A stretch of 64,000 nucleotides of DNA from Candidatus Minusculum obligatum (GCA_045401155.1 CP174360.1:159035-223034); one strand, 5' to 3'; shown: positions 3,105 through 47,038, counted from the stretch's first letter. Notes: a model not told the origin generated them from the sequence alone. Numbers and translations are program-made.

Positions 3105-4154
3105 ATGAAAAACACCCCTATTAACATTTCAATCACTACAGGAGCAGTCATCAAGATCCTCCTTATTCTTGTGGGAGCATATACGCTCTACATTTTGCGT
3201 GATCTAGCGCTCCTGGTTATCACCGCTATTGTATTGGCCTCAGCTGTTGAGCCAGGTGTCGATTTCTTTAGACGACGACTACGCGTACATCGCGTAATAG
3301 CGGTGCTATTTACATACCTATTGGTATTTGGATCTATATTTGGAGCCATTTACTACTTCTTGCCACCGGTACTCGATGAGGCACAGTCATTTATTGGACT
3401 GTTGCCGCAATACCTTGAGACTATCCAGCTTCCAACTTCAATTGGAAACCCTGGATTTATTGCAGCTGAAACCACAAGCGCTAAGACAAGTATTCTAGAT
3501 TCACTTCTTGCATTACAATCTTCATTTGCTGATACCGGAGAGGGAATTGTGCGCCTGCTTGCCACAGTCTTTGGAGGTATCTTCTCACTTATTCTTACGA
3601 TTGTACTTTCATTCTACTTTGCGGTACGAGATACCGGTATTGATGACTTCCTAAAGCTTATTACACCCGTAAAGCATCAAGAATATGTGCTTGGACTATG
3701 GCGACGATCTCAAAAGAAGATTGGACTATGGATGCAAGGACAGCTCATGCTCTCACTCATTATTGGAATCTTGCTCTACCTCGGACTTACAATCCTTGGC
3801 GTGCCGTACGCACTCTTGCTCGCAGTCTTTGCTGCAGTGCTTGAGCTTATTCCTGTATTTGGGTCTATCATCGCTGCGATCCCAGGAGTTATTGTGGCGC
3901 TTGTAGATGGAGGACCAACACTCGCACTTATTGTTGCCGCACTCTTCTTGATCGTAAACCAATTCCAAGGAAACCTTATCTATCCTTTGGTGGTGAAGAA
4001 GGTGATCGGCGTACCACCACTACTTGTGATTCTCGCACTTATTGCAGGAGGACAATTGGCAGGATTTATTGGGGTAATCCTCTCAGTACCTATCGCAGCC
4101 GGAATCCAAGAACTCGTACACGACTTCCAGCAAAAGCGAAAAAGCTCCTCGTGA
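3105..4154 (+). CDS. AI-2E family transporter (UPF0118/PerM-like permease)
   Basis: Multi-TM protein with the family-typical N-terminal 'LVITAIVLASAVEP' and C-terminal 'PLLVILALIAGGQLAGFIGVILSVPIAA' segments. Confidence 0.7.
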   Translation: MKNTPINISITTGAVIKILLILVGAYTLYILRDLALLVITAIVLASAVEPGVDFFRRRLRVHRVIAVLFTYLLVFGSIFGAIYYFLPPVLDEAQSFIGLLPQYLETIQLPTSIGNPGFIAAETTSAKTSILDSLLALQSSFADTGEGIVRLLATVFGGIFSLILTIVLSFYFAVRDTGIDDFLKLITPVKHQEYVLGLWRRSQKKIGLWMQGQLMLSLIIGILLYLGLTILGVPYALLLAVFAAVLELIPVFGSIIAAIPGVIVALVDGGPTLALIVAALFLIVNQFQGNLIYPLVVKKVIGVPPLLVILALIAGGQLAGFIGVILSVPIAAGIQELVHDFQQKRKSSS

Positions 4155-4608: not shown

Positions 4609-6030
4609 ATGGCAAATCGCTACATAACAACTACACTTCCGTACGTAAACGCAGATCCACATGTGGGATTTGGACTTGAAATCGTACAAGCAGACTTCCT
4701 CGCTCGGTACTGGAGACTAACTGGAGAAGATGTATTTTTCACAACCGGAACAGATGAGCACGGACAAAAAATCTTCCAAAAAGCACAAGAAGAGGGGAAA
4801 GACGTACAAGCGTACGTAGATCATTACGCCAATGAGTTTAAAAAGCTAAAGGAGGCACTCAATCTTTCAAATGACGCATTTATCCGCACAACAGATGAAA
4901 AGCACATTAATGCTGCACAAGAAATCTGGAAGCGCTGCGAAGCAAATGGAGATATTTATAAAAAGAAGTACAAGGGACTCTACTGTGTAGGAGATGAGGC
5001 ATTTCTAAAAGAAAATGAATTGGTAGATGGAAAGTGTCCAAACCATCCAACAATGGATCCAGTTGAAATTGAAGAAGAAAACTATTTCTTTAAGTTTAGT
5101 AATTACCAAGACAAGCTACTGAAGTATCTTGAGAATGAAGAGGTAATCATTCCAGACTGGCGTCGTAAAGAGGCAATTGAGTTTGTAAAAAATGGTCTTG
5201 AAGACTTTTCTATCTCTCGTGAAAAAGAACGGCTCTCTTGGGGCGTGCCCGTACCTGGAGATGACTCACAAGTAATGTACGTATGGTTTGATGCGCTTAC
5301 CAACTACATCTCGACACTAGATTGGCCAGAAGGAGAACACTTTAAAAAGTACTGGGAGAATGCGCATGTACTACAAGTAGCAGGGAAGGATCAGGTACGA
5401 TTCCAATCACTTATCTTCCAAGCGATGCTCCTGTCAGCTAATGTAAAGAATACTGATCAAGTCTTTTACCATGGCTTCATTACCTCAAATGGACAGAAGA
5501 TGAGTAAGTCTATTGGAAACGTAATCTCTCCATATGAGCTTATCGAAAAATACGGAACCGATGCTACGCGGTACCTGCTTCTTCGACATGTGCATCCTGT
5601 AGATGATTCAGACATTACGTGGGAGAAACTAGATGAGTGGTATACCGCTAACTTGGTAAATGGAATTGGAAATCTAACCGCCCGCATCACCAAGCTTGCA
5701 GAAACACACCTAGAAGGGCCAATTGAAAAACCAGACGCAGAAACATTCCCAAGTGAGTACACATCTGCAATCGATAACTTTAAATTTAATGAAGCACTCG
5801 ATTACATCTTTAAACGAGTGGGAGATCTCGATAAGCGAATCACAGATGAAGAGCCATTTAAGGTAGTAAAGACAGATCTAGAAAAGGGAAGAGAGTTAAT
5901 TAAGGAATATATGGAGGAACTTTATGTAATTGGACGACTGCTCAATCCAGTTATGCCTGAAAGCTCAAATATAATTAAAGAGTCAGTACTCAAGAACACA
6001 AAACCAGAAGGACTCTTCCAACGCCTTTAG
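4609..6030 (+). CDS. metG: methionine--tRNA ligase
   Basis: PYVNADPHVGF (HIGH-type) and KMSKSIGN (KMSKS) motifs. Likely start is MANRYITT at 4609; the track ORF starts upstream at 4528. Confidence 0.9.
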   Translation: MANRYITTTLPYVNADPHVGFGLEIVQADFLARYWRLTGEDVFFTTGTDEHGQKIFQKAQEEGKDVQAYVDHYANEFKKLKEALNLSNDAFIRTTDEKHINAAQEIWKRCEANGDIYKKKYKGLYCVGDEAFLKENELVDGKCPNHPTMDPVEIEEENYFFKFSNYQDKLLKYLENEEVIIPDWRRKEAIEFVKNGLEDFSISREKERLSWGVPVPGDDSQVMYVWFDALTNYISTLDWPEGEHFKKYWENAHVLQVAGKDQVRFQSLIFQAMLLSANVKNTDQVFYHGFITSNGQKMSKSIGNVISPYELIEKYGTDATRYLLLRHVHPVDDSDITWEKLDEWYTANLVNGIGNLTARITKLAETHLEGPIEKPDAETFPSEYTSAIDNFKFNEALDYIFKRVGDLDKRITDEEPFKVVKTDLEKGRELIKEYMEELYVIGRLLNPVMPESSNIIKESVLKNTKPEGLFQRL

Positions 6031-6181: not shown

Positions 6182-6478
6182 TTAGGCGAAGGTGTACCCC
6201 TCCCATTGAACATCACCGCAATTTTTGCAGGTATGGGCCTTTACGTCGTTCATACATTCACCGCCGTGTCCCCACGTGTAGCCGCAGGTGTCACATGTGT
6301 GAAAGTGATGTTCCAAAAATGCTTGATTGTGTTCGTGATGCTCGCGAAGCATCTGTTCGAACGTCTCAATCATCTCTTGAACTTGCCGCTCTCTTTGCCG
6401 GCGCAGGTAACGCCTTCGTACATATGAGAGAAGTAGGCAAAGAGCGCCGCCAAGTAGCGCTGAAAACAGCAGTCCCAT
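6182..6478 (-). CDS. small membrane-anchored protein with C-terminal Cys/His-rich zinc-ribbon-like motif (CDTCGYTWGHGGEC...HTCKNCGD); GC-rich orphan cassette C2
   Basis: N-terminal TM helix plus CxxC...CxxC. The minus-strand leader has the ribosome-binding site 'gaagagggacacaccATG', a TTGACA-18-TATAGT promoter and a downstream hairpin at 6150-6180. Confidence 0.45.
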   Translation of the reverse strand: MGLLFSALLGGALCLLLSYVRRRYLRRQRERQVQEMIETFEQMLREHHEHNQAFLEHHFHTCDTCGYTWGHGGECMNDVKAHTCKNCGDVQWEGYTFA

Positions 6479-6579: not shown

Positions 6580-7350
6580 ATGAAATACATCGACACACAC
6601 TGCCATCTCCAATTTGACGCATACGATGAAGATCGAGAGGAAATCATCAGTCAAATGAAAGAAAACGACATCCATGCCATTACCGTGGGTGTAGATTTTA
6701 ATTCCTCAAAGCAAGCAATCGAACTTGCACAAAAACATAATCATATCTACGCAACGGTAGGAATGCACCCATGCTATGTGGCAAAAGAAGAATTTGATAA
6801 GGAAGCATTTCTAGAAATTACTAAAGACAATACTGTGGTTGCAATAGGAGAGTGCGGACTCGATTACTTCCGAGAAGAAGACAAAAACGTACAAAAACTC
6901 CAAAAAGAAGTATTCATACAGCAGGTAGAGATTGCACAGGAGCTTCAAAAACCCCTAATGATCCACGGACGCCCAAGCAAAGGAGCATACGATGCATATG
7001 AAGACATCATCAAAATCCTTAAAGACTACAACGTAACCGGAAATATTCACTTTTTCGTAGGAAGCAGTGAGATTCGGGATCAATTTGAAGAATTAGGATT
7101 TACAGTATCAGTAACAGGCGTAATCACCTTCACGGATGACTATAACGACATGGTAACGGCTGCAAAACAAGATTTTCTCCTCGCAGAGACTGATTCTCCA
7201 TATGTTGCGCCAAAACCACATAGGGGAGAGCGAAACTCAGCGTTAAACGTGGTGCACGTATACAAGAAAATAGCGGATCTTTGGGAAATGGAGGAGGAAG
7301 AAGCGCAAAAAATCCTCACGGCTAATACAAGGCGTATTTTTGGCCTATAG
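6580..7350 (+). CDS. tatD: TatD-family metal-dependent hydrolase/DNase
   Basis: MKYIDTHCHLQFDAYDEDREEI... and the TatD HxH, GECGLDY and ETDSPY motifs. Confidence 0.85.
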   Translation: MKYIDTHCHLQFDAYDEDREEIISQMKENDIHAITVGVDFNSSKQAIELAQKHNHIYATVGMHPCYVAKEEFDKEAFLEITKDNTVVAIGECGLDYFREEDKNVQKLQKEVFIQQVEIAQELQKPLMIHGRPSKGAYDAYEDIIKILKDYNVTGNIHFFVGSSEIRDQFEELGFTVSVTGVITFTDDYNDMVTAAKQDFLLAETDSPYVAPKPHRGERNSALNVVHVYKKIADLWEMEEEEAQKILTANTRRIFGL

Positions 7351-7391
7351 CATTGCACAGCCACCCCCTATGTGCTAATGTGCTCCCACAT

Positions 7392-7853
7392 ATGGCAGAT
7401 ACTGAAGCAGTACAGAACGACGAGATCTCAGTGTATGAGGCGGCATTTCATATTGATGCAAACCTTTCAGAAACTGAGGTAAAGAAAACCTTTGATGGAG
7501 TAAAGGAGGTGGTAGCAAATGCAGGGGGAACACTTATCGCTGAGGCACTTCCTGAGCGTATGAATCTTGCATACACTATCTCATCTATTACTGAGGGAGT
7601 ACGACGAGACCACAATAGTGCACACTTTGCGTGGGTTGCGTACGAACTTTCTCCTGAAAAGGCAGAAGCGGTACAGGAAGAATTGCAAAGCAATAAAGCT
7701 ATTATCCGTCACCTTATTACTACAACTACAAAAGAAGAGGCTCTCTATGCACAAGACCGTGCAGCAGAGAAAATGTCTGTAGCAAAGGCTCCTGAGTCTG
7801 AGGAGGTTTCAGATGAAGAGCTTGATGAGGTGCTAGAGGAAACAACCGCGTAG
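7392..7853 (+). CDS. rpsF: 30S ribosomal protein S6 with acidic C-terminal tail
   Basis: S6-like core (YEAAFHID...GTLIAEALPERMNLAYTI) sitting in the classic rpsF-ssb-rpsR arrangement. Confidence 0.8.
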   Translation: MADTEAVQNDEISVYEAAFHIDANLSETEVKKTFDGVKEVVANAGGTLIAEALPERMNLAYTISSITEGVRRDHNSAHFAWVAYELSPEKAEAVQEELQSNKAIIRHLITTTTKEEALYAQDRAAEKMSVAKAPESEEVSDEELDEVLEETTA

Positions 7854-7854
7854 T

Positions 7855-8292
7855 ATGTACATCAACAAGGCACTTATTTACGGAAACCTAACACGAGACC
7901 CTGAGGTAAAGGCACTTCCTTCAGGATCTCAGGTTGCATCATTCTCAGTTGCAACAAACCGAACCTACAAGGATCAGAACGGACAGCAGCAGGATGCAGT
8001 GGAGTACCACAACATCACTATGTTTGGCCGACAGGCTGAAGTTGCAGGTCAGTATCTAAAGAAAGGACGTCCTGTATTTATTGAGGGGCGCCTTCAGACT
8101 CGCAATTGGGAGAAAGATGGTGTAAAACACTATCGAACTGAAATTGTTGCAGACCGATTCCAATTTGGACCATCTGCACGAGGAGGAGAGGGAGCGCCTG
8201 CTGCAAACCCAGCAGATGAGCAGCCAGCTCCATCAGGAGATGCAATCCAGTACCCAGATGAAGACATTAATCCGGAAGATATTCCATTTTAA
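7855..8292 (+). CDS. ssb: single-stranded DNA-binding protein
   Basis: OB-fold signature (LIYGNLTRDPEVKALPSGSQVASFSVATNRTYKD) and the C-terminal acidic tail ending DIPF. Confidence 0.9.
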   Translation: MYINKALIYGNLTRDPEVKALPSGSQVASFSVATNRTYKDQNGQQQDAVEYHNITMFGRQAEVAGQYLKKGRPVFIEGRLQTRNWEKDGVKHYRTEIVADRFQFGPSARGGEGAPAANPADEQPAPSGDAIQYPDEDINPEDIPF

Positions 8293-8302
8293 TAATTGAG
8301 AT

Positions 8303-8503
8303 ATGGACGACGAGAAAAAGACAATGGATACACCACGATTTGTGGACTACAAGGATACAGACTACCTAAAGCAGTTTGTGAATCCACACGCACGTATCAA
8401 TAACCGACGACGTACACGAGTATCTGCACGCCGACAGCGAGAAATCACTCAAGCTATCAAGCGCGCACGATTCATGGCACTGATGCCGTACATCGCTCGA
8501 TAA
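8303..8503 (+). CDS. rpsR: 30S ribosomal protein S18
   Basis: NPHARINNRRRTRVSARRQREITQAIKRARFMALMPY. Confidence 0.9.
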   Translation: MDDEKKTMDTPRFVDYKDTDYLKQFVNPHARINNRRRTRVSARRQREITQAIKRARFMALMPYIAR

Positions 8504-8506
8504 TAA

Positions 8507-8531
8507 AAAGCACCCGGAAGGGTGTTTTTTA
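8507..8531 (+). terminator. rho-independent terminator after rpsR
   Basis: cacccggaagggtg hairpin followed by TTTTTT. Confidence 0.7.
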
Positions 8532-8566
8532 AAACAGAAACGCCCAGCGGACGTTTCCGCTAGGCG

Positions 8567-8773
8567 TTAGGGGTAAAAATCAAGGCTGATCCCGCTGAAG
8601 TAAAAGTCACACACGTTGGTTTTGGGTGAGATAATCTTGTGCCCAACCAAAACAAACGGCATAACAACCAAAGCTGCAAGAATTGCAACAATGATAACCG
8701 CAACCATGAGGATGCCGATGCACAGCAGGAAAAAGTAGCCTATGGTTTTCAGAAGATCTACAAATAGCTTCAT
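8567..8773 (-). CDS. small hydrophobic membrane protein (about 68 aa)
   Basis: MKLFVDLLKTIGYFFLLCIGILMVAVIIVAILAALVVMPFVLVGH... preceded on the minus strand by the ribosome-binding site 'aaaggagtattctgATG'. A 13-bp hairpin (8530-8560) follows its stop. Confidence 0.35.
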   Translation of the reverse strand: MKLFVDLLKTIGYFFLLCIGILMVAVIIVAILAALVVMPFVLVGHKIISPKTNVCDFYFSGISLDFYP

Positions 8774-9142
8774 CAGAATACTCCTTTCCCAATTCAGAAG
8801 ATAATACAAATAAAAAATAAGCGCAATGCGCTTATAAGGTGTCTTGGAGATGAGGCTGTGCACGCAGCCTCATCTCCATATGTCTGGAAAGATATTCATC
8901 AGACTGACGATGGGAACATAACTCCACCGGGCTGGCTGAATCTTGTTGCAAGAGGCTCAAATGAGCAGTGGCGCCCCTCAGGGCGCCGCCTAGTACGCTG
9001 CTCCGACAAGATCTCTTTATTGAAGCGGGCGGAATAACTTCTTTAACTTGATGATTGCCGGAAATCATCAAGTTTTGACCTGAGACCAAACCGTCCCTGA
9101 CCAATGTGCGTACCAGGCTCTGCGAGAGAGTATATAGTAACT

Positions 9143-9718
9143 CTACGCTTTATCAACCCGCTCCACGTACTCACCATTCTCTGTATTGATACGCAGTACG
9201 TCTCCCTCATTGATAAATAGGGGAGTTGTAACAACCGCGCCACCTTCAAGTACCACTTGCTTAGAACCACCCTGCGCAGTATTTCCGCGAACTGCAGGTG
9301 GCGCCTCAACTACCTCAAGCTCAACCTTAATTGGAATACGAATAGAAATAATTTCATCCTCAAAGGTAACCGCCTCAACAGATTCATTCTCCTTAAGCCA
9401 CTTCACCTTATCTGCCACAGAGTCCTCAGGTAGGGTAAAGCGATCACCCTTATCTCCTGCGCTATGGAACCAGCTTTCACCACGATTGGTATATAGGTAC
9501 ACTACTTCTTTTACAGAAATATCAGCTTCTTCTGCCTTGTCGCTTGCATGAAAGGCATTCTCAATAACGCGCCCAGAGATAAGGTGCTTGAGCTTTACTT
9601 GGTTTTGCGGCTTGCGCTGCTGCTTACGTGCTACGTGAGAGGAAATAACCTCATACGGCTCTCCATTAAATACAATTACTTTCTTTGGAGTAATCTCGTT
9701 ATACGCTAGTGTTGCCAT
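9143..9718 (-). CDS. efp: elongation factor P
   Basis: MATLAYNEITPKKVIVFNGEPYEVISSHVARKQQRKPQNQVKLKHLISGRV is the typical EF-P N-terminus. Confidence 0.9.
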   Translation of the reverse strand: MATLAYNEITPKKVIVFNGEPYEVISSHVARKQQRKPQNQVKLKHLISGRVIENAFHASDKAEEADISVKEVVYLYTNRGESWFHSAGDKGDRFTLPEDSVADKVKWLKENESVEAVTFEDEIISIRIPIKVELEVVEAPPAVRGNTAQGGSKQVVLEGGAVVTTPLFINEGDVLRINTENGEYVERVDKA

Positions 9719-9719
9719 A

Positions 9720-10760
9720 CTACTGTTTCTCTAACTCTGCTCGGATTTTCTTAAGAATCTCATTGGTCACCGGCTTATTTTCCTTTAGGAATGTGCGTGC
9801 TGCATCGTACCCACGTCCAAGAGAATCTTCGCCATACTTATAAAATGCACCATTTTTCTGAAGTACGTCGTACTTCTCTCCAAGGGCAAGGATCTCTCCC
9901 TCTCTTGAGATACCTTCGTTATATAGGAGATCAAACTCCGTATTTTTAAATGGAGCTGCCACTTTATTTTTCACCACCTTTACGCGTACACGCCCTCCAA
10001 CCACTTCTTCTCCTTTCTTGATCTGCGCAATACGACGAATATCTAGACGCACTGAGGTATAGAACTTAAGCGCACGCCCTCCAGGAGTTGTCTCTGGATT
10101 ACCAAACATAACCCCAATTTGCATACGAATCTGGTTAATAAAGATAACCGTTGTTTTACTGCGAGAAACCGCAGCCGTAAGCTTACGAAGCGCCTGGCTC
10201 ATAAGACGAGCCTGCTTTCCAACATGGGTCTGTCCCATATCTCCCTCAATCTCATCCTTTGGCGTAAGGGCTGCCACTGAGTCAACAACGATAATATCTA
10301 CGCTATTACTTCTAACCAAGCTCTCTACAATCTCAAGAGCTTGTTCTCCTGTATCTGGCTGGGAAATAATAAGATCGTCGAGCTTAACCCCAATACGCTT
10401 TGCGTACTCTGGATCCAGCGCGTGCTCTGCATCAATAAAAGCGGCAACACCTCCAGCTTTTTGTGCTTCTGCAATAGCGTGCAGGGTAAGGGTTGTCTTA
10501 CCTGAACTCTCAGGTCCATAAATCTCTACGATACGTCCACGAGGAAGTCCGCCGATGCCGAGTGCGGCATCTAGTCCAATGGATCCGGTAGGGATAGAAT
10601 CAATCTTCTTTGGCTTTACACTTCCAAAGGTCATCACTGATTCCTCCCCAAACTTTGCTTGGATTTCCTTTAGAGCTGCATCAACCTTGGAATTCTTCTC
10701 CTCCTTCGCTTCCGCCTTGGTTGGTTTCTTCTCTGCTGCTGGTTTCTTCTTCGCTGGCAT
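9720..10760 (-). CDS. recA: recombinase RecA with Lys-rich N-terminal extension
   Basis: [51 protein letters not shown] (Walker A, L1/L2). Likely start is MPAKKKP at 10760. Confidence 0.9.
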
Positions 10761-29261: not shown

Positions 29262-30020
29262 CCTGGCTACGTGATTAGTGATAAAAAAACGACCAGATAA
29301 AGGAAAGCGGATCAACCGCGCATTAATGCGTACCGCTTCCTGCTGAAGCGGATTTTTTATTCCAGAAAGAGAGTCACGCATGATGTTTGAAAATTGAATA
29401 GAAGAGCGAATGCATTTCATCAGCAATAATTCATAAAAGTTATTGTGGTTACCAGATCTCCTTTTTGGAGACTGTAAGAGTATATGGGGGATGCCTTGGC
29501 TCAAACGAGCGATGAAGGACGTGGAAGTCTGCGATAAGCTTCGGGGAGATGACAAACAATCTTTGATCCGGAGATTTCCGAATGGGGGAACCCAATCAAT
29601 TGTTATTGATTACTTATTGGGTCGCACCAATAAGAGCGAACCTGGGGAACTGAAACATCTAAGTACCCAGAGGAATAGAAAGCAACAGGGACTATTTTCT
29701 GTCTGGTTCCTTTTAGGATTCGGATAGAGGGTAGTCTTGCGATTTCCTTAGTAGCGGCGAGCGAAACGGAAGAAGCCCAAACCGGATACTTCGGTATCCG
29801 GGGTTGTACGGCAAAGGTGCTGCACTTGTGTAGGAAGAGTTACCAAGTGTGAATATAGAAAAAGTATCTGGGAAGATACACCATAGAGGGTAATAGTCCC
29901 GTATTCGAAATATTCACACCTCTTTCGCCTTTGTTCGTGAGTAGCTCGAGACATGAATAGCTCGAGTGAATCTGGGAGGACTAACTCCTAAGGCTAAATA
30001 TCGTTTGAGACCGATAGTGA

Positions 30021-30054
<34 letters not shown>

Positions 30055-30621
30055 GAGAGGGGAGTGAAATAGAACTGAAACCATATACTTACAAACAGTT
30101 GGAGGGGTACTTGTACCCTGACAGCGTGCCTATTGAAGAATGAGCCGGCGAGTGTATATGTGCTGCAAGCTAAGTCCGTAATGGGACGGAGCTTTAGGGA
30201 AACCGAGTGTGAATAGCGCGTTAGTAGTATGTATACGACCCGAAACTAAGTGAGCTTGCCATGGGCAGGGTGAACACGTGTGAAAACACGTGGGAGGCCC
30301 GCACCGGTTGGTCGTTTAATGCCATCGGATGACCTGTGGTAGGGAGTGAAAAGCTAATCGAACTTAGTAATAGCTGGTTCTCTCCGAAACAGCTTTAGGG
30401 TTGGCGTCGCGTGTTCCCTTCGGGGGTAGAGCACTGGAAGGACTAAATAGGGGGAAACCTCGTTAGTCCTATCAAACTCCGAATACCGAAGATTAATAAC
30501 GCGGCAGTTAGACTGCGGGGAGAAGCTCCGTTGGTCGAAAGGGGAACAGCCCAGATCGCCAGTTAAGGCCCCTAAATTAGTGCTCAGTGTAACTTAAGGA
30601 AGTGAGGATCCTCCGACAATG

Positions 30622-30672
<51 letters not shown>

Positions 30673-30740
30673 TCATCAAGGGTCCTTGCGCCGCAAATGA
30701 TCGGGACTTAAGCACTATGCCGAAACTGCGGGTTCGCGGA

Positions 30741-30919
30741 TTTCATTCAGGAAATGTTCTTTGTTTATTGAGGGGTGTTGGCCGAGCGGTTAAAGGCAGC
30801 GGGCTCGTCAGCCCGTGAGTTGGGAATCGTATGTCCCAGTACAACTCATCGCAGGTTCGAATCCTGTACACCCTGCCAATAAACTTTTTGACAATCTTCG
30901 GATTGTCTCCTGAATGAAA
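30741..30919 (+). other. intervening sequence inserted in 23S helix 45, closed by a perfect 12-bp inverted repeat (tttcattcagga / tcctgaatgaaa) and containing a tRNA-like element
   Basis: Alignment to the E. coli helix-45 region shows about 180 extra nt between 'ggttcgcgga' and 'tccgtgagcgg'. The flanks are perfectly complementary, and an inner 7-bp stem gtttatt/aataaac also brackets the tRNA-like core. Confidence 0.7.
30772..30878 (+). tRNA. class-II tRNA(Ser)-like element with encoded CCA, embedded in the 23S helix-45 insertion; anticodon loop is 6 nt (TCGTCA), so possibly a non-decoding pseudo-tRNA
   Basis: Acceptor GGGGTGT/ACACCCT, D arm TGGCCGAGCGGTTAAAGGCA (matches bacterial tRNA-Ser), anticodon stem CGGGC/GCCCG, a roughly 35-nt variable hairpin (GAGTTG...CAACTC), T arm GCAGG-TTCGAAT-CCTGT, discriminator G and CCA. 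Confidence 0.45.
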
Positions 30920-31631
30920 TCCGTGAGCGGTAGGAGAGCGTTCTGTTCGCGATGAAGGTAAAGGGGTGACCCATACTGGAGCGTACAGAAGTGAGAATGC
31001 CGGCACGAGTAACCGCAATGCGAGTGAGAGCCTCGCACACCGAAAGACCAAGGTTTCCGCAGCTACGATGATCAGCTGCGGGTTAGTCGGGCCTAAGGGG
31101 ATGACGAAAGTCGCACCCGATGGACACATGGTTAATATTCCATGACTGCATTACTATGCGATGGGGGGACGGATTGTTGTACACATTGCCCATTATTGGA
31201 TTTGGGTCGATGCTATGAGGGCTGCTTTTAGGTAAATCCGGAAGCGTATAGTCCAAGTAGAGTCGCAATGTTTTGGTTTCGGCCAGAATAGAGAATGTGG
31301 AGCACGGTTCCCAGAAAAGCCTCTAAGCATAATAGTAATGTATCCGTACCGCAATCCAACACAGGTGGTCAGGGCGAGTAGCCCAAGGTGAACGAGTGAT
31401 GGGTCCTCAAGGAACTCGGCAAAAAAGCGACCGTAACTTCGGGATAAGGTCTGCCCCTGCTTCTTCGGAGGTGGGGGCCGCAGCGAAAGTTTCTCTGGCG
31501 ACTGTTTATCAAAAACACAGCTCCCTGCGAACTCGTAAGAGTATGTATAGGGGGTGACGCCTGACCAATGCCAGAAGGTTAAGCACGGATGGTACATTTC
31601 TTCGGATTTGTGCTGGGCTGTGTAAGCCCTG

Positions 31632-31670
<39 letters not shown>

Positions 31671-32378
31671 TAATTCCTTGTCGGGTAAGTTCCGACGTGC
31701 ACGAATGGCGTAACGACTGGAGAACTGTCTCGAGGACTTGCTCGGTGAAAATGCAATCCCGGTAAAGATGCCGGGTAGATGTGGAAAGACAGAAAGACCC
31801 CAGAAGCTTTACTACAGCTTCGTATTGGGGCTGCGTGACATGTGCGTAGCATAGGTGGGAGACTTTGAAGCATTCCTTTTGGGGAATGTGGAGTCGTCAG
31901 TGAAATACCACTCTCATGTTGTTCAGTCTCTAACCCTTAGGGAAACCCTAAAGGGACAGTGCGTGGTGGGTAGTTTGAGTGGGGCGCTCTCCTCCTAAAA
32001 AGTAACGGAGGAGTCTATTAAGGTCAGCTAGGCGCGAATGGACACCGTGCCGATAGTGTAATGGCAAAAGCTGGCTTGACTGTGAGGGGTACGTCCCGAG
32101 CAGGTGCGAAAGCAGAGCATAGTGATCCGACTGTACGCATTAGATGCGGCAGGAGCTCAACGGATAAAAGCTACTCTGGGGATAACAGGCTAGTCGCGCC
32201 CAAGCGTCCATAGCGACGGCGCGGTTCGGCACCTCGATGTCGGCTCATCTTATCCTGGGGCTGGAGAAGGTCCCAAGGGTTTGGCTGTTCGCCAATTAAA
32301 AAGATACGCGAGCTGGGTTCAAACCGTCGTGAGACAGGTTGGTTCTCTATCTTCCACATCCGTCGATTCTTGCAGAGA

Positions 32379-32411
<33 letters not shown>

Positions 32412-32469
32412 AACCTCTGGTCTATCGGCTGTCACGCCAGTGGCACTGCCGAGTAGCTATGTTCGGAAT

Positions 32470-32502
<33 letters not shown>

Positions 32503-32710
32503 AACTCTAAGATTAGGAATCATTAAGACCCCTAGGAGATGACTAGGTTGATAGGCTCTACGTAGAAGTACAGTGATGTATTGAGCGGAGGAGTACTAAT
32601 TCGTCGTCGTCTCCAACAAGGAAGTCTGGATGACACAATATCTTTGAAGCTTTTGCTGATGAAATGTATTCGCTTTTCTTTCAATGAAATAAAAAACAAC
32701 GTGTTTTTTG

Positions 32711-32818
32711 TGTTGGTGATATGGCAAGGTGGAAACACCTGTTCTCATTCCGAACACAGAAGTTAAGCGCCTTCGCGCCGATGGTACTCGAAAGGGGAGA
32801 GTAGGTCGTCGCCAACAC
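32711..32818 (+). rRNA. rrf: 5S ribosomal RNA (about 108 nt)
   Basis: CCGAACACAGAAGTTAAGCGCC..CGCGCCGATGGTACT...GAGAGTAGG; the 5' gtgttggtg pairs with the 3' cgccaacac. Confidence 0.85.
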
Positions 32819-32830
32819 AAAGAACATGTT

Positions 32831-32868
32831 AAAGAAAGACCTGAATGTATATTCAGGTCTTTCTTTTT
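32831..32868 (+). terminator. rho-independent terminator of the 23S-5S unit
   Basis: aaagaaagacctgaat-gtat-attcaggtctttcttttt. Confidence 0.75.
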
Positions 32869-32883
32869 GGTATACTCAATGCA

Positions 32884-42757: not shown

Positions 42758-42904
42758 GGCCCCACTGTCTAGAAAGGCAGTTTTTGATTGATTTTTGAAA
42801 CACGAGTCTAGTCCATTGGAGCTACCAAGTGACTAGATCATAGAGTACGTAATGATCACTGAGTTAAGTGGAATGAAATATATTTTCTTTCGTTCCGCCT
42901 ATTC

Positions 42905-44362
<1,458 letters not shown>

Positions 44363-44550
44363 GTGGACTTCTTGTACTTTGTACAAGTACGGCGATCATC
44401 TGTTTTACAGATGTGGACATGGCACTCATCCAGAAATGGTGCCCGGCGTACCTACAGTCGGAAGTAGGTCGTTGTGTTGTCGAATTCGCAACATAACGTG
44501 AATAGGCGGAACGAATGAGTATATATTTCAGATTTACGTACACTATGAGC

Positions 44551-45283: not shown

Positions 45284-46561
45284 ATGCTGGTGTATATGTT
45301 TTCAGGGAAGAGAGTTACGGTTATGGGACTTGGGCTTTTGGGGCGCGGTGTTGGAGATGCCGCGTATTTGGCAGAGCAGGGTGCTGAGGTTTTAGTGACA
45401 GATCTAAAGAGTAAAGAGGAGCTTCAGGTTTCTGTAGATAAACTTTCTCATTTTTCTAATATTTCTTTTGTGCTTGGAGAGCACCGTCTAGAAGATTTTG
45501 AAGATAAAGATTTTATATTGAAGGGGAATGGCGTACCGCTTCAAAATAAATATATTGAACATGCACAGAGCAGTGGTGTGCCTATTGAGATGAGCGGTGC
45601 ACTTTTCCATGCGTATGCTGGTATTCCCATGATCGGTGTTACCGGTACTCGGGGGAAAAGCACGATTACTGAGCTTATTCATCACGTACTCGGGAGTAGA
45701 TCATTGCTTGGTGGGAATATTCGAGGTGTTTCTAATTTACAGCTTTTAAAAGAAGTTGAAGGGAAGGAAGTCGCAACTTTTGAGTTGGATAGCTGGCAGC
45801 TGCAGGGCTTTGGGTATAGAAAGATTTCTCCGCAGGTTGCGGTGTTTAGTAACTTCATGGAGGATCATCTTAATTACTATGGAGATATGGATACGTACTT
45901 CATGGATAAGGCGCAGATTTTTCTACATCAAAAAGAGGATGGTGTTTTGATTGTTGGAGAGGGTGTAGAGGACCGCATAAAAGAGTATCGAAGTGACTAC
46001 ATTGTTGCGAAAAAAGAAGATGTAGATTTTTCTTGGGTACCGGGATTAGTTGGAGAGCACAATCATGAAAATGTTGCATGCGCGTATCATGCGCTCAAGA
46101 TGCACGGACTTTCTGATGAAGAAATTAAAAAGGGATTTTTAAGCTTTGCGCCGGTTGAGGGGAGGCTACAGTTTGTTGGTGAGTATAGAGGCGTAAAAGT
46201 TTTTAATGACAATAATGCAACGACGCCAACTGCTACTGCTGCAGGAATTGCCGCATTGAAAGGAGAGGGGAGGTTGATTGCCATTATTGGCGGAGCAGAT
46301 AAAGGGTTAGATGTGTCTCCACTTGTAGATGTTTTGGGAAGTGTAGATCATGTAATCCTGCTTGCAGGTTCTGGGACAGAGAAATTGGGAATAGGTGGTG
46401 AGATGTTTGATGATATAGAAAAAGCACTTGCGTCTGCATTTTCTATTGCAGAAGAATGTGACACTATTTTATTTTCACCAGGATTTGCATCCTTTGGAAT
46501 GTTCCAAAATGAGTATGAGCGTAACGATGCGTTTATGCAGGCGCTGTCTCATTTTGAATAA
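45284..46561 (+). CDS. murD: UDP-N-acetylmuramoyl-L-alanine--D-glutamate ligase
   Basis: KRVTVMGLGLLGRGVGDAAYLAEQGAEV...IGVTGTRGKSTITELI. Start may be the internal Met at 45296. Confidence 0.85.
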   Translation: MLVYMFSGKRVTVMGLGLLGRGVGDAAYLAEQGAEVLVTDLKSKEELQVSVDKLSHFSNISFVLGEHRLEDFEDKDFILKGNGVPLQNKYIEHAQSSGVPIEMSGALFHAYAGIPMIGVTGTRGKSTITELIHHVLGSRSLLGGNIRGVSNLQLLKEVEGKEVATFELDSWQLQGFGYRKISPQVAVFSNFMEDHLNYYGDMDTYFMDKAQIFLHQKEDGVLIVGEGVEDRIKEYRSDYIVAKKEDVDFSWVPGLVGEHNHENVACAYHALKMHGLSDEEIKKGFLSFAPVEGRLQFVGEYRGVKVFNDNNATTPTATAAGIAALKGEGRLIAIIGGADKGLDVSPLVDVLGSVDHVILLAGSGTEKLGIGGEMFDDIEKALASAFSIAEECDTILFSPGFASFGMFQNEYERNDAFMQALSHFE

Positions 46562-46831: not shown

Positions 46832-46904
46832 GCGCGCATAGCTCAGTTGGCTAGAGCATTCGACTGATACTCGAAAGGTCCTAGGTTCGAATCCTAGTGC
46901 GCGC
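46832..46904 (+). tRNA. tRNA-Ile (anticodon GAT); CCA not encoded
   Basis: Acceptor GCGCGCA/TGCGCGC, D arm GCTC-AGTTGGCTA-GAGC, anticodon arm TTCGA-CTGATAC-TCGAA, T arm CTAGG-TTCGAAT-CCTAG, discriminator A. Confidence 0.9.
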
Positions 46905-47038
46905 ACAAAAAGGTATATTGCATTACATATGAAAGATCGTTTTTGGTTCAAGAGAATGTATTTCGGTATTGGTTGGGTACCAGCAACATGGCAGGGAGGT
47001 AAGAGATAGCAGCAAAAGAACACACACTTATATACAAG

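Follow-up and report, generated by a model that had tools for sequence, protein, structure and literature searches.

The intervening sequences (IVSs) described at the apex of 23S rRNA helix 45 in Salmonella, Yersinia, Leptospira, Campylobacter, Coxiella, and Alphaproteobacteria are bordered by complementary stems, occur sporadically, and are excised by RNase III to leave fragments of about 1.2 (1.2-1.3) and 1.7 kb (PMC4990558). Their cargo is an unstructured loop or an S23p/IVP open reading frame (ORF), and why they exist, how they spread, and what they carry is an old puzzle. In the Patescibacteria or candidate phyla radiation (CPR), Tsurumaki et al. 2024 described short 23S insertions at IVS sites, including 23IS4, that are neither introns nor ORF-bearing and are uncharacterized (PMC11270868). 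As relayed in that article from Brown et al. 2015, CPR rRNA gene insertions are reportedly removed from the transcripts. We analyzed 64,000 nucleotides (the window) of Candidatus Minusculum obligatum (GCA_045401155.1 CP174360.1:159035-223034), an ultra-small bacterium of the Patescibacteria whose 23S rRNA gene, present as a single copy, carries 179 extra bases at the tip of helix 45 (positions 30741-30919). On balance, we favor the view that they form a helix-45 IVS of a Patescibacteria family, that this IVS is excised from the pre-23S, and that the tRNA(Ser)-like fold inside it is a non-decoding passenger or a processing handle. tRNAs and tRNA-like structures are the commonest cargo of this family.

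The host 23S rRNA gene (29464..32619, plus strand) matches the Rfam model RF02541 with 2515 bits over model positions 1-2925, its full length. As had been proposed from the sequence, the extra bases lie in helix 45; the Rfam large-subunit (LSU) alignment puts them between model positions 1218 and 1219, within the loop closing the hairpin directly 5' of the conserved GGUAGGAGAGCGUUC. Helix 45 proper pairs GTTCGCGGA (30732..30740, plus strand) with TCCGTGAGC (30920..30928, plus strand), the latter followed by the conserved GGTAGGAGAGCGTTC, in both the LSU alignment and the minimum free energy (MFE) fold. The apex of helix 45 thus carries extra sequence in an otherwise complete 23S, as in the classical IVSs.

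Complementary arms border the insert and form a long duplex. The basal stem consists of TTTCATTCAGGA (30741..30752, plus strand) and its exact reverse complement TCCTGAATGAAA (30908..30919, plus strand), so the perfect 12-bp closing stem of the original prediction is exact, and it runs on into helix 45 for a total of 21 uninterrupted pairs, two of them G.U. The two strands fit the family motifs YTTCAYWSAGG and CCTSWRTGAAR, the second followed by the conserved 23S flank. This 3' motif with its flank has one match in the window and none in 100 shuffles. The "inner 7-bp stem" seen earlier turned out to be two separate elements. One is an 8-bp leader/trailer helix between GTTTATTG (GUUUAUUG; 30763..30770, plus strand) and CAATAAAC (CAAUAAAC; 30877..30884, plus strand), which in the MFE fold takes in C75-A76 of the encoded CCA. 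The other is a 7-bp 3' hairpin with a cUUCGg tetraloop, GACAATC-TTCG-GATTGTC (30890..30907, plus strand), lying one base ahead of the 3' basal strand in the MFE fold. Between the 5' basal strand and the leader lies a 10-nt linker, AATGTTCTTT (AAUGUUCUUU; 30753..30762, plus strand), that is unpaired in the MFE fold. The window insert therefore has all the parts of the family frame, namely the basal stem, the GTTCTTT linker, the leader/trailer helix, and a GC hairpin beside the 3' basal strand.

Folded without constraints, positions 30729-30931 reach an MFE of -92.7 kcal/mol (z = -7.85; 0 of 200 shuffles as good). This fold returns the acceptor, anticodon, variable, and T arms of the tRNA-like, and all but one of the 4 pairs of the D arm. 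It stacks helix 45, the basal stem, the leader/trailer helix, and the acceptor/T arm continuously, with a 1x2 internal loop at the discriminator as the sole break. The continuous stack, the masking of the CCA by pairing, the perfect stems, and the stable tetraloops (UUCG in the window; GUAA in place of the anticodon in two other family members, kept while the stems covary) would suit an insert that is retained in the mature ribosome. There it could be a surface expansion of helix 45, acting as an rRNA-tethered tRNA mimic that binds a tRNA-recognizing factor or adds structure. We regard retention as unlikely.

Contigs of relatives were fetched through homologs of the window RodA (72-84% identical); these and the other loci fetched for comparison carry L-numbers. 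Their gene order is that of the window: an MscL-like gene, 23S-5S, a hypothetical gene, and RodA. Most of their 23S blocks share 92-97% identity with the window's; one block of L066 is at 84%. Helix 45 was compared in five relatives; three further contigs stop short of it. In four of the five (L060, L062, L065, and L066), helix 45 is short and plain (GGGTTCGTACATTTATGTATGAGC). The fifth, L064, has a different insert of 264 nt (~2480-2745) in the same kind of frame, with a 62-codon ORF-like stretch replacing the tRNA. Of the 12 positions of its basal stem, 4 differ from the window, with pairing kept by compensation, whereas the rRNA on either side shows about 95% identity. Relative to these genes the indel covers LSU positions 1274-1460 (window 30737-30923), and the distal 4 bp of the window's helix 45 are unlike those of the insert-free relatives, which have GTACA/TGTAT there. 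The segment is thus not a normal expansion of helix 45 in this clade but is present or absent sporadically among close relatives. With four relatives lacking the insert and one having another, the insert is dispensable and polymorphic within a tight clade, the hallmark of classical IVSs. Such presence/absence and wholesale change of content, in a clade with mostly 92-97% identical 23S, speak against retention, as does the reported removal of CPR rRNA insertions from transcripts (PMC11270868, relaying Brown et al. 2015). So does the cargo of the family, which varies from 36 to 778 nt and includes tandem tRNAs, small ORFs, and rRNA-like fragments. Cargo this variable is a poor fit to a defined ribosomal structure and speaks for removal.

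The core of the insert is a 107-nt class II tRNA-like (30772..30878, plus strand) derived from tRNA(Ser). Its acceptor stem, GGGGTGT/ACACCCT (30772-78/30868-74), is paired at 7 of 7 positions with a G1.U72 wobble. A Ser-type D arm (30781-97) follows, with a 3-bp stem and G18G19 in the loop, then an anticodon arm (30799-30816) with the loop CUCGUCAG, a variable region of about 34 nt with a hairpin (30817-50), a T arm GCAGG-TTCGAAT-CCTGT (30851-67), discriminator G73 (30875), and an encoded CCA (30876-78). The Rfam tRNA model (RF00005) scores 42.0 bits on 30772-30875, above the gathering score of 29, with E values of 1.6e-5 over the whole window and 6.6e-8 locally. In BLAST searches that included phage genes, the 5' third (30772-30806) matched tRNA-Ser in 17 of the 19 matches having a tRNA annotation. 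When all 107 nt were searched against E. coli genomes and phages, only the T arm found matches. Covariance model, fold, and the phage tRNA-Ser genes matching the 5' third all agree with the Ser-type class II cloverleaf with encoded CCA that had been proposed. The Ser-type D arm, long variable arm, and G73 are those of a class II tRNA-Ser, with a variable region longer than usual. The parts on which tRNA-like "punctuation" would depend are intact as well: a fully paired acceptor, G18G19, the T-loop UUCGAAU, and the minihelix/elbow.

The anticodon arm can be read with an 8-nt loop on a 5-bp stem, a 6-nt loop on a 6-bp stem, or a 4-nt loop on a 7-bp stem, the last being the MFE structure. None is the canonical 7-nt loop, with U33 and a purine at position 37, of a functional decoder. 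The 6-nt loop given in the original prediction was therefore right in being non-canonical, though it is one of three readings and the MFE structure is a tetraloop. A loop of 8 nt or a tetraloop argues that the element is not a decoder, in line with the non-decoding role first suggested. As modeled, the cloverleaf cannot decode, its anticodon loop being remodeled into a closed hairpin. ARAGORN in standard mode made no tRNA call on it because the loop is not 7 nt. Allowed introns, the program returned a "tRNA-Thr(CGU) with a 21-nt intron", and at very low stringency a "tRNA-Phe" in another register. Both are forced fits, since the Rfam alignment and the MFE fold agree on class II.

It is very unlikely, in our estimation, that the element is a working tRNA gene using the rRNA promoter, whether as a decoder with an 8-nt loop or, more plausibly, as a tRNA charged by seryl-tRNA synthetase (SerRS) for a non-ribosomal use. 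SerRS recognizes the long variable arm and G73, not the anticodon. The window element keeps both, along with the Ser-type D arm and the CCA, and some family members are very probably real tRNAs, such as the tRNA-Trp described below. G3:U70, the anticodon-independent identity pair for Ala, is found in 4 of 28 elements, too few to be read as a sign of alanylation. A working tRNA would be hard to reconcile with the lack of a canonical anticodon loop, which the MFE fold closes to a 7-bp stem and tetraloop, with a variable region far exceeding that of known tRNA-Ser, with the G1.U72 wobble, and with the rejection by ARAGORN. The element is also in no close relative examined and hence is not essential.

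To survey how widespread the insert is, we scanned one genome per species, demanding only that a T-arm precede the conserved 23S flank by 38-68 nt. Of the 13 loci found, 10 are 23S genes whose helix 45 contains one or two tRNAs or tRNA-likes. They include four Kaiserbacteria, three Paceibacterota, one Saccharibacteria, and one genome titled Bacillota. All 10 share the window's frame and basal stem, and the basal-stem pattern itself matches 9. Metagenomes were scanned with the 3' strand of the basal stem and its flank, without demanding a tRNA, and 46 loci with inserts of 36-778 nt were found. Rather than being an isolated oddity, the tRNA-like insert belongs to a family seen in 10 genomes and 46 metagenome contigs. 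Both scans are limited by their patterns, so that the frequencies given here are not a census.

ARAGORN called a tRNA or tRNA-like in 14 of the 33 unique metagenome inserts. Eight more have remnants recognized by eye, with paired acceptor ends, a CCA mostly next to them, and a degenerate or expanded core; those in L016, L034, L040, L045, L052, and L056 were judged by reading the sequence. At the gathering threshold, Rfam gave no further tRNA match in 13 loci with inserts that ARAGORN did not call. The remaining 11 unique inserts have no tRNA-like. Among them are inserts with small ORFs and that of L015, an "empty" hairpin of 36 nt carrying the exact stem of the window. About two thirds of the unique inserts therefore hold tRNAs, tRNA-likes, or remnants.

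The frame is more constant than its contents. The basal stem of the family is YTTCAYWSAGG/CCTSWRTGAAR and directly continues helix 45. A GC-rich 3' hairpin abuts the basal stem or lies within 2 nt of it in 42 of 44 unique inserts, tRNA-free ones too, and the exact GTTCTTT heptamer is present in 24 of the 44, usually immediately 5' of the leader helix. In 24 unique elements, the leader/trailer duplex has a mean energy of -8.1 kcal/mol for cognate strands and -4.4 for non-cognate ones, and none of 10000 permutations reached the cognate mean. This pairing is real and covaries. Because the basal stem and 3' hairpin are constant and the tRNA is not, an IVS with tRNA-derived cargo is favored over a mobile tRNA-like insertion, one of the possibilities raised at the outset. 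No second copy of the insert is present in the 64-kb window. When the insert was compared by BLAST with the window and every fetched locus, neither a second copy nor a close homolog of the Ser-like body came up, so nothing points to a repeated mobile element in this part of the genome. Likewise, covariance models of group I and group II introns had no match in 30700-30960 even at E <= 10, while the group I models readily matched elsewhere in the 23S genes of relatives. Neither a credible ORF nor a promoter or terminator signal above chance is present in the insert.

Within the cloverleaves, compensatory changes are found at 17 of 19 consensus pairs. In the 27 unique helix-45 elements called by ARAGORN, the anticodon loop has 7 nt in 21, and 12 of these also have U33 and R37. 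The CCA is encoded in 18 of the 27, and the T-loop consensus is kept in 22, a figure that the mode of detection inflates. L005 and L010 keep a non-canonical loop, CCGUAAG, while their stems covary, so that a GUAA tetraloop replaces the anticodon. L016 has lost the anticodon and T arms and keeps the helical stalk. At the other end of the range, L003 (3397-3473) and L014 (insert positions 269-345), from different lineages, have a canonical tRNA-Trp(CCA) in helix 45. Every stem differs between the two yet remains paired, the anticodon loops (CUCCAAA) and T-loops are identical, and the D-loops are one change apart. The tRNA-Trp is very probably a functional tRNA gene nested within a 23S gene.

Recurrence of the family also bears on the quality of the assembly. 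The source is a metagenome-assembled genome. Assembly errors are common in rRNA regions, and breaks at helix 45 or close to it occur in several related contigs, so a tRNA gene could have been joined chimerically into the 23S. The chance of this appears negligible, as the insert occupies precisely the apex of helix 45, the arms around it are perfectly complementary, its flanks are colinear with those of relatives, and the same architecture is present in about 50 independent assemblies from many projects. Four contigs start or end inside the insert or within ~55 nt of it (the start of L068, and L038, L046, and L058), consistent with assemblies breaking at a polymorphic site.

If the insert is an IVS, it would be transcribed inside the pre-23S and removed without religation, through RNase III acting on the 21-bp duplex and/or RNase P cutting at G1 (30772). 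Exonucleases would then trim the 5' fragment back to the basal stem and the 3' fragment to the 3' hairpin. The product would be a functional two-piece 23S of ~1.28 and ~1.70 kb joined by the basal helix, with fragment sizes similar to those expected by analogy with classical IVSs. A CCA-ended tRNA-like of ~107 nt would be released as a passenger or processing handle, not as a decoder. The pre-23S is most likely cleaved at the insert, given that the 21-bp perfect duplex is the invariant part and lies at a known IVS site, that RNase III cuts classical IVSs at this site in helix 45 (PMC4990558), and that CPR rRNA insertions are reported, in the account cited above, to be removed from transcripts.

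RNase III, RNase P, and RNase Z had all been suggested as the enzyme. RNase Z is the least likely of the three, for the CCA is encoded in the element and is absent from the window's tRNA-Ile gene. CCA is an anti-determinant for RNase Z. That tRNA-Ile(GAU) (46832-46906), which ends ...GCGCGC-A-CAAAAAGG and lies downstream of the 16S, has no encoded CCA, unlike the helix-45 element. RNase P could contribute or even lead, as suggested by the retention of the acceptor, elbow, and CCA and by tRNA-likes with aberrant loops in the 23S-5S spacer and after the 5S.

Carried further, the tRNA-like itself could be the processing signal, with RNase P and a 3' nuclease cutting the pre-23S there and the basal helix merely holding the halves together. 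This overlaps with the reading we favor and differs from it only in the enzyme that makes the first cut; we consider it possible but hold it with distinctly less confidence. Anticodon loops vary in the family while the acceptor, G18G19, T-loop, and CCA are kept. Where aberrant-loop tRNA-likes stand in the 23S-5S spacer (L015) or after the 5S (L060 and L062, with calls in L064, L067, and L070), defining RNA ends is their only obvious use. The asymmetric layout, a single-stranded 5' linker and a protective 3' hairpin, would suit exonuclease trimming after cuts at the tRNA ends, and the spacer tRNAs of rRNA operons are, as is generally known, cut by RNase P in rRNA maturation. Set against this, the frame is intact in the 11 of 33 unique inserts without a tRNA-like and in L016 without a T arm. 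The invariant part, a perfect duplex of 21 bp, is a textbook substrate for RNase III, the leader/trailer pairing masks both the cleavage site and the CCA, and the conservation of the "top half" of the tRNA is inflated by detection bias. A broader form of the idea, that non-decoding tRNA-likes are a general, RNase P-led punctuation of Patescibacteria rRNA transcripts at helix 45, between 23S and 5S, and after 5S, we put forward tentatively. Some of these sites may also express genuine tRNA genes, such as the tRNA-Trp of L003 and L014.

Excision of the insert as an IVS with a passenger or handle must itself be weighed against several observations. Leader pairing with the trailer and CCA should disfavor RNase P cleavage, and in the window the leader pairs with the trailer and C75-A76 and so masks the RNase P site, while the encoded CCA disfavors RNase Z. 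All stems in the window are perfect and the UUCG loop is extra-stable; such stems look selected, not decaying, and a retained structural module would fit them equally well. L016 keeps its stalk without a T arm, which implies that whatever acts on the frame does not need the tRNA shape. The bias in the T-loop count is a further point on this side, and a motif scan of the 64-kb window for RNase III, RnpA, and a CCA-adding enzyme found none of them.

Compared with the classical IVSs, the family has the same apex site, complementary arms, and sporadic occurrence (PMC4990558). It differs in its contents, where a cloverleaf on a leader/trailer helix, with a 3' hairpin and a linker, takes the place of the unstructured loop or S23p/IVP ORF, and in a basal stem whose sequence is conserved across distant Patescibacteria lineages. 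The family and the short 23IS4 insertions of Tsurumaki et al. are almost certainly the same objects. The main text of that article (PMC11270868) nowhere uses the word tRNA, whereas we find a conserved frame with tRNA cargo. Nested tRNAs also go unmentioned in a 2026 study of the tRNA introns of Patescibacteria. In the openly available full texts searched, we came across no account of tRNAs in helix-45 inserts, and as far as that literature shows, the conserved frame and tRNA cargo of these inserts are described here for the first time.

The spacer and distal tRNAs of rRNA operons and the tRNA punctuation of mitochondria are likewise tRNA structures embedded in rRNA transcripts. In those systems, RNase P and 3' nucleases process the tRNA ends and so separate the flanking RNAs. 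The window element differs in lying inside the 23S and not between genes, in being non-decoding, and in having its ends paired together. The tRNA-like domain of tmRNA, the MALAT1 mascRNA, and the 3' tRNA-like structures of plant viruses resemble it in keeping an acceptor, T arm, elbow, and CCA without a functional anticodon, and are recognized by tRNA enzymes. They have no sequence relationship to it and do not share its context at the tip of an rRNA helix. The tRNA of the mammalian mitoribosome central protuberance is, as is generally known, also a non-decoding tRNA fold in a large subunit. It is a separate molecule that replaces 5S rRNA, while the window element is covalently nested in helix 45, polymorphic, and probably removed.

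For one of the largest bacterial radiations, helix 45 thus has an insert with a conserved frame whose usual cargo is tRNAs or tRNA-derived folds. Three testable ideas follow: that tRNA-processing enzymes share in 23S fragmentation, that tiny genomes use the rRNA promoter to express tRNAs, and that stable tRNA-like RNAs without an anticodon are made in amounts matching rRNA. If true, tRNA-like punctuation would parallel in bacteria the tRNA punctuation of mitochondria. The inserts also have consequences for annotation: within CPR 23S genes, tRNA finders will predict spurious or nested tRNAs, rRNA callers may split 23S genes that have the insert, and assemblies tend to break at the polymorphic helix-45 site.

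Other cargo of the family is diverse. Tandem tRNAs or tRNA-likes are found inside one leader/trailer helix in L007 (685-757 and 780-853), L013 (1319-1394 and 1412-1486), L030, L059, and L052. In L007, the Saccharibacteria locus, one tandem member has a canonical anticodon loop with the amber-reading triplet CUA. Small ORFs are the cargo in L064, L048, and L031, with a Shine-Dalgarno-like AGGAG and then an ATG in L048 and L031. The inserts of L004, L005, L021, and L027, and more weakly L025, have a hairpin TAGTAATCGCGGATCAG..TG.CGCGGTGAATG that copies a conserved hairpin of the 16S 3'-domain; its counterpart in the window 16S (44170-44215) is GCTAGTAATCGTGGGTCAGCAACACCACGGTGAATACG. Rfam gives no score to the 16S-like piece (L027). 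The L005 insert also carries GTCCGAATGGGGAAACCC, which we take to resemble a conserved 5' region of 23S. The genome titled "Bacillota bacterium MAG132" (L011) has a family insert with an Ala-like tRNA-like, G3:U70, and GGGGCTGTAGCTCAG. Its 23S aligns end to end with that of the window, an L7/L12 gene lies upstream as in CPR loci, and the gene order is CPR-like, so the Bacillota label may be wrong.

Relatives also encode a tRNA-like 17-27 nt 3' of the 5S: L060 (4901-4975), L062 (4929-5004), L064 (5118-5192), L067 (171-244), L070 (309-385), and L065 (~5000-5110). In L060 and L062 the anticodon loop was confirmed to be aberrant, with 6 or 8 nt; in L065 the element is degenerate and its loop expanded. 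ARAGORN called Lys(UUU) in L064 and L067 and a class I "Ser(AGA)" in L070. In the window (32818-32870) and its closest relative, L063, no tRNA-like follows the 5S, and its place is taken by a terminator-like hairpin. The window thus combines a tRNA-like in helix 45 with none after the 5S, the reverse of most relatives. The 23S-5S spacer of L015 (minus strand; 23S 6790-10004, 5S 6284-6390) holds a tRNA-like at 6618-6690 with a 6-nt anticodon loop that scores 60.8 bits, and that of L050 holds a tRNA-Pro(GGG) at 3142-3215.

Group I introns (Rfam RF00028) are present in the 3' half of the 23S in L011, L003, L007, L015, L040, L049, L050, L064, and L065, and L066 has a LAGLIDADG ORF (3597-4079) in its 23S 3' half; the Rfam scan of the window 23S returned no group I intron. 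The rRNA genes of the window are unlinked, in the order 23S-5S ... 16S. The 5S (32712-32817; RF00001, 85.5 bits) lies 3' of the 23S, and the 16S (42904-44363; RF00177, 1389.6 bits) about 10 kb away. A gene for a MurD-like ligase (45284-46561) stands between the 16S and the tRNA-Ile(GAU).

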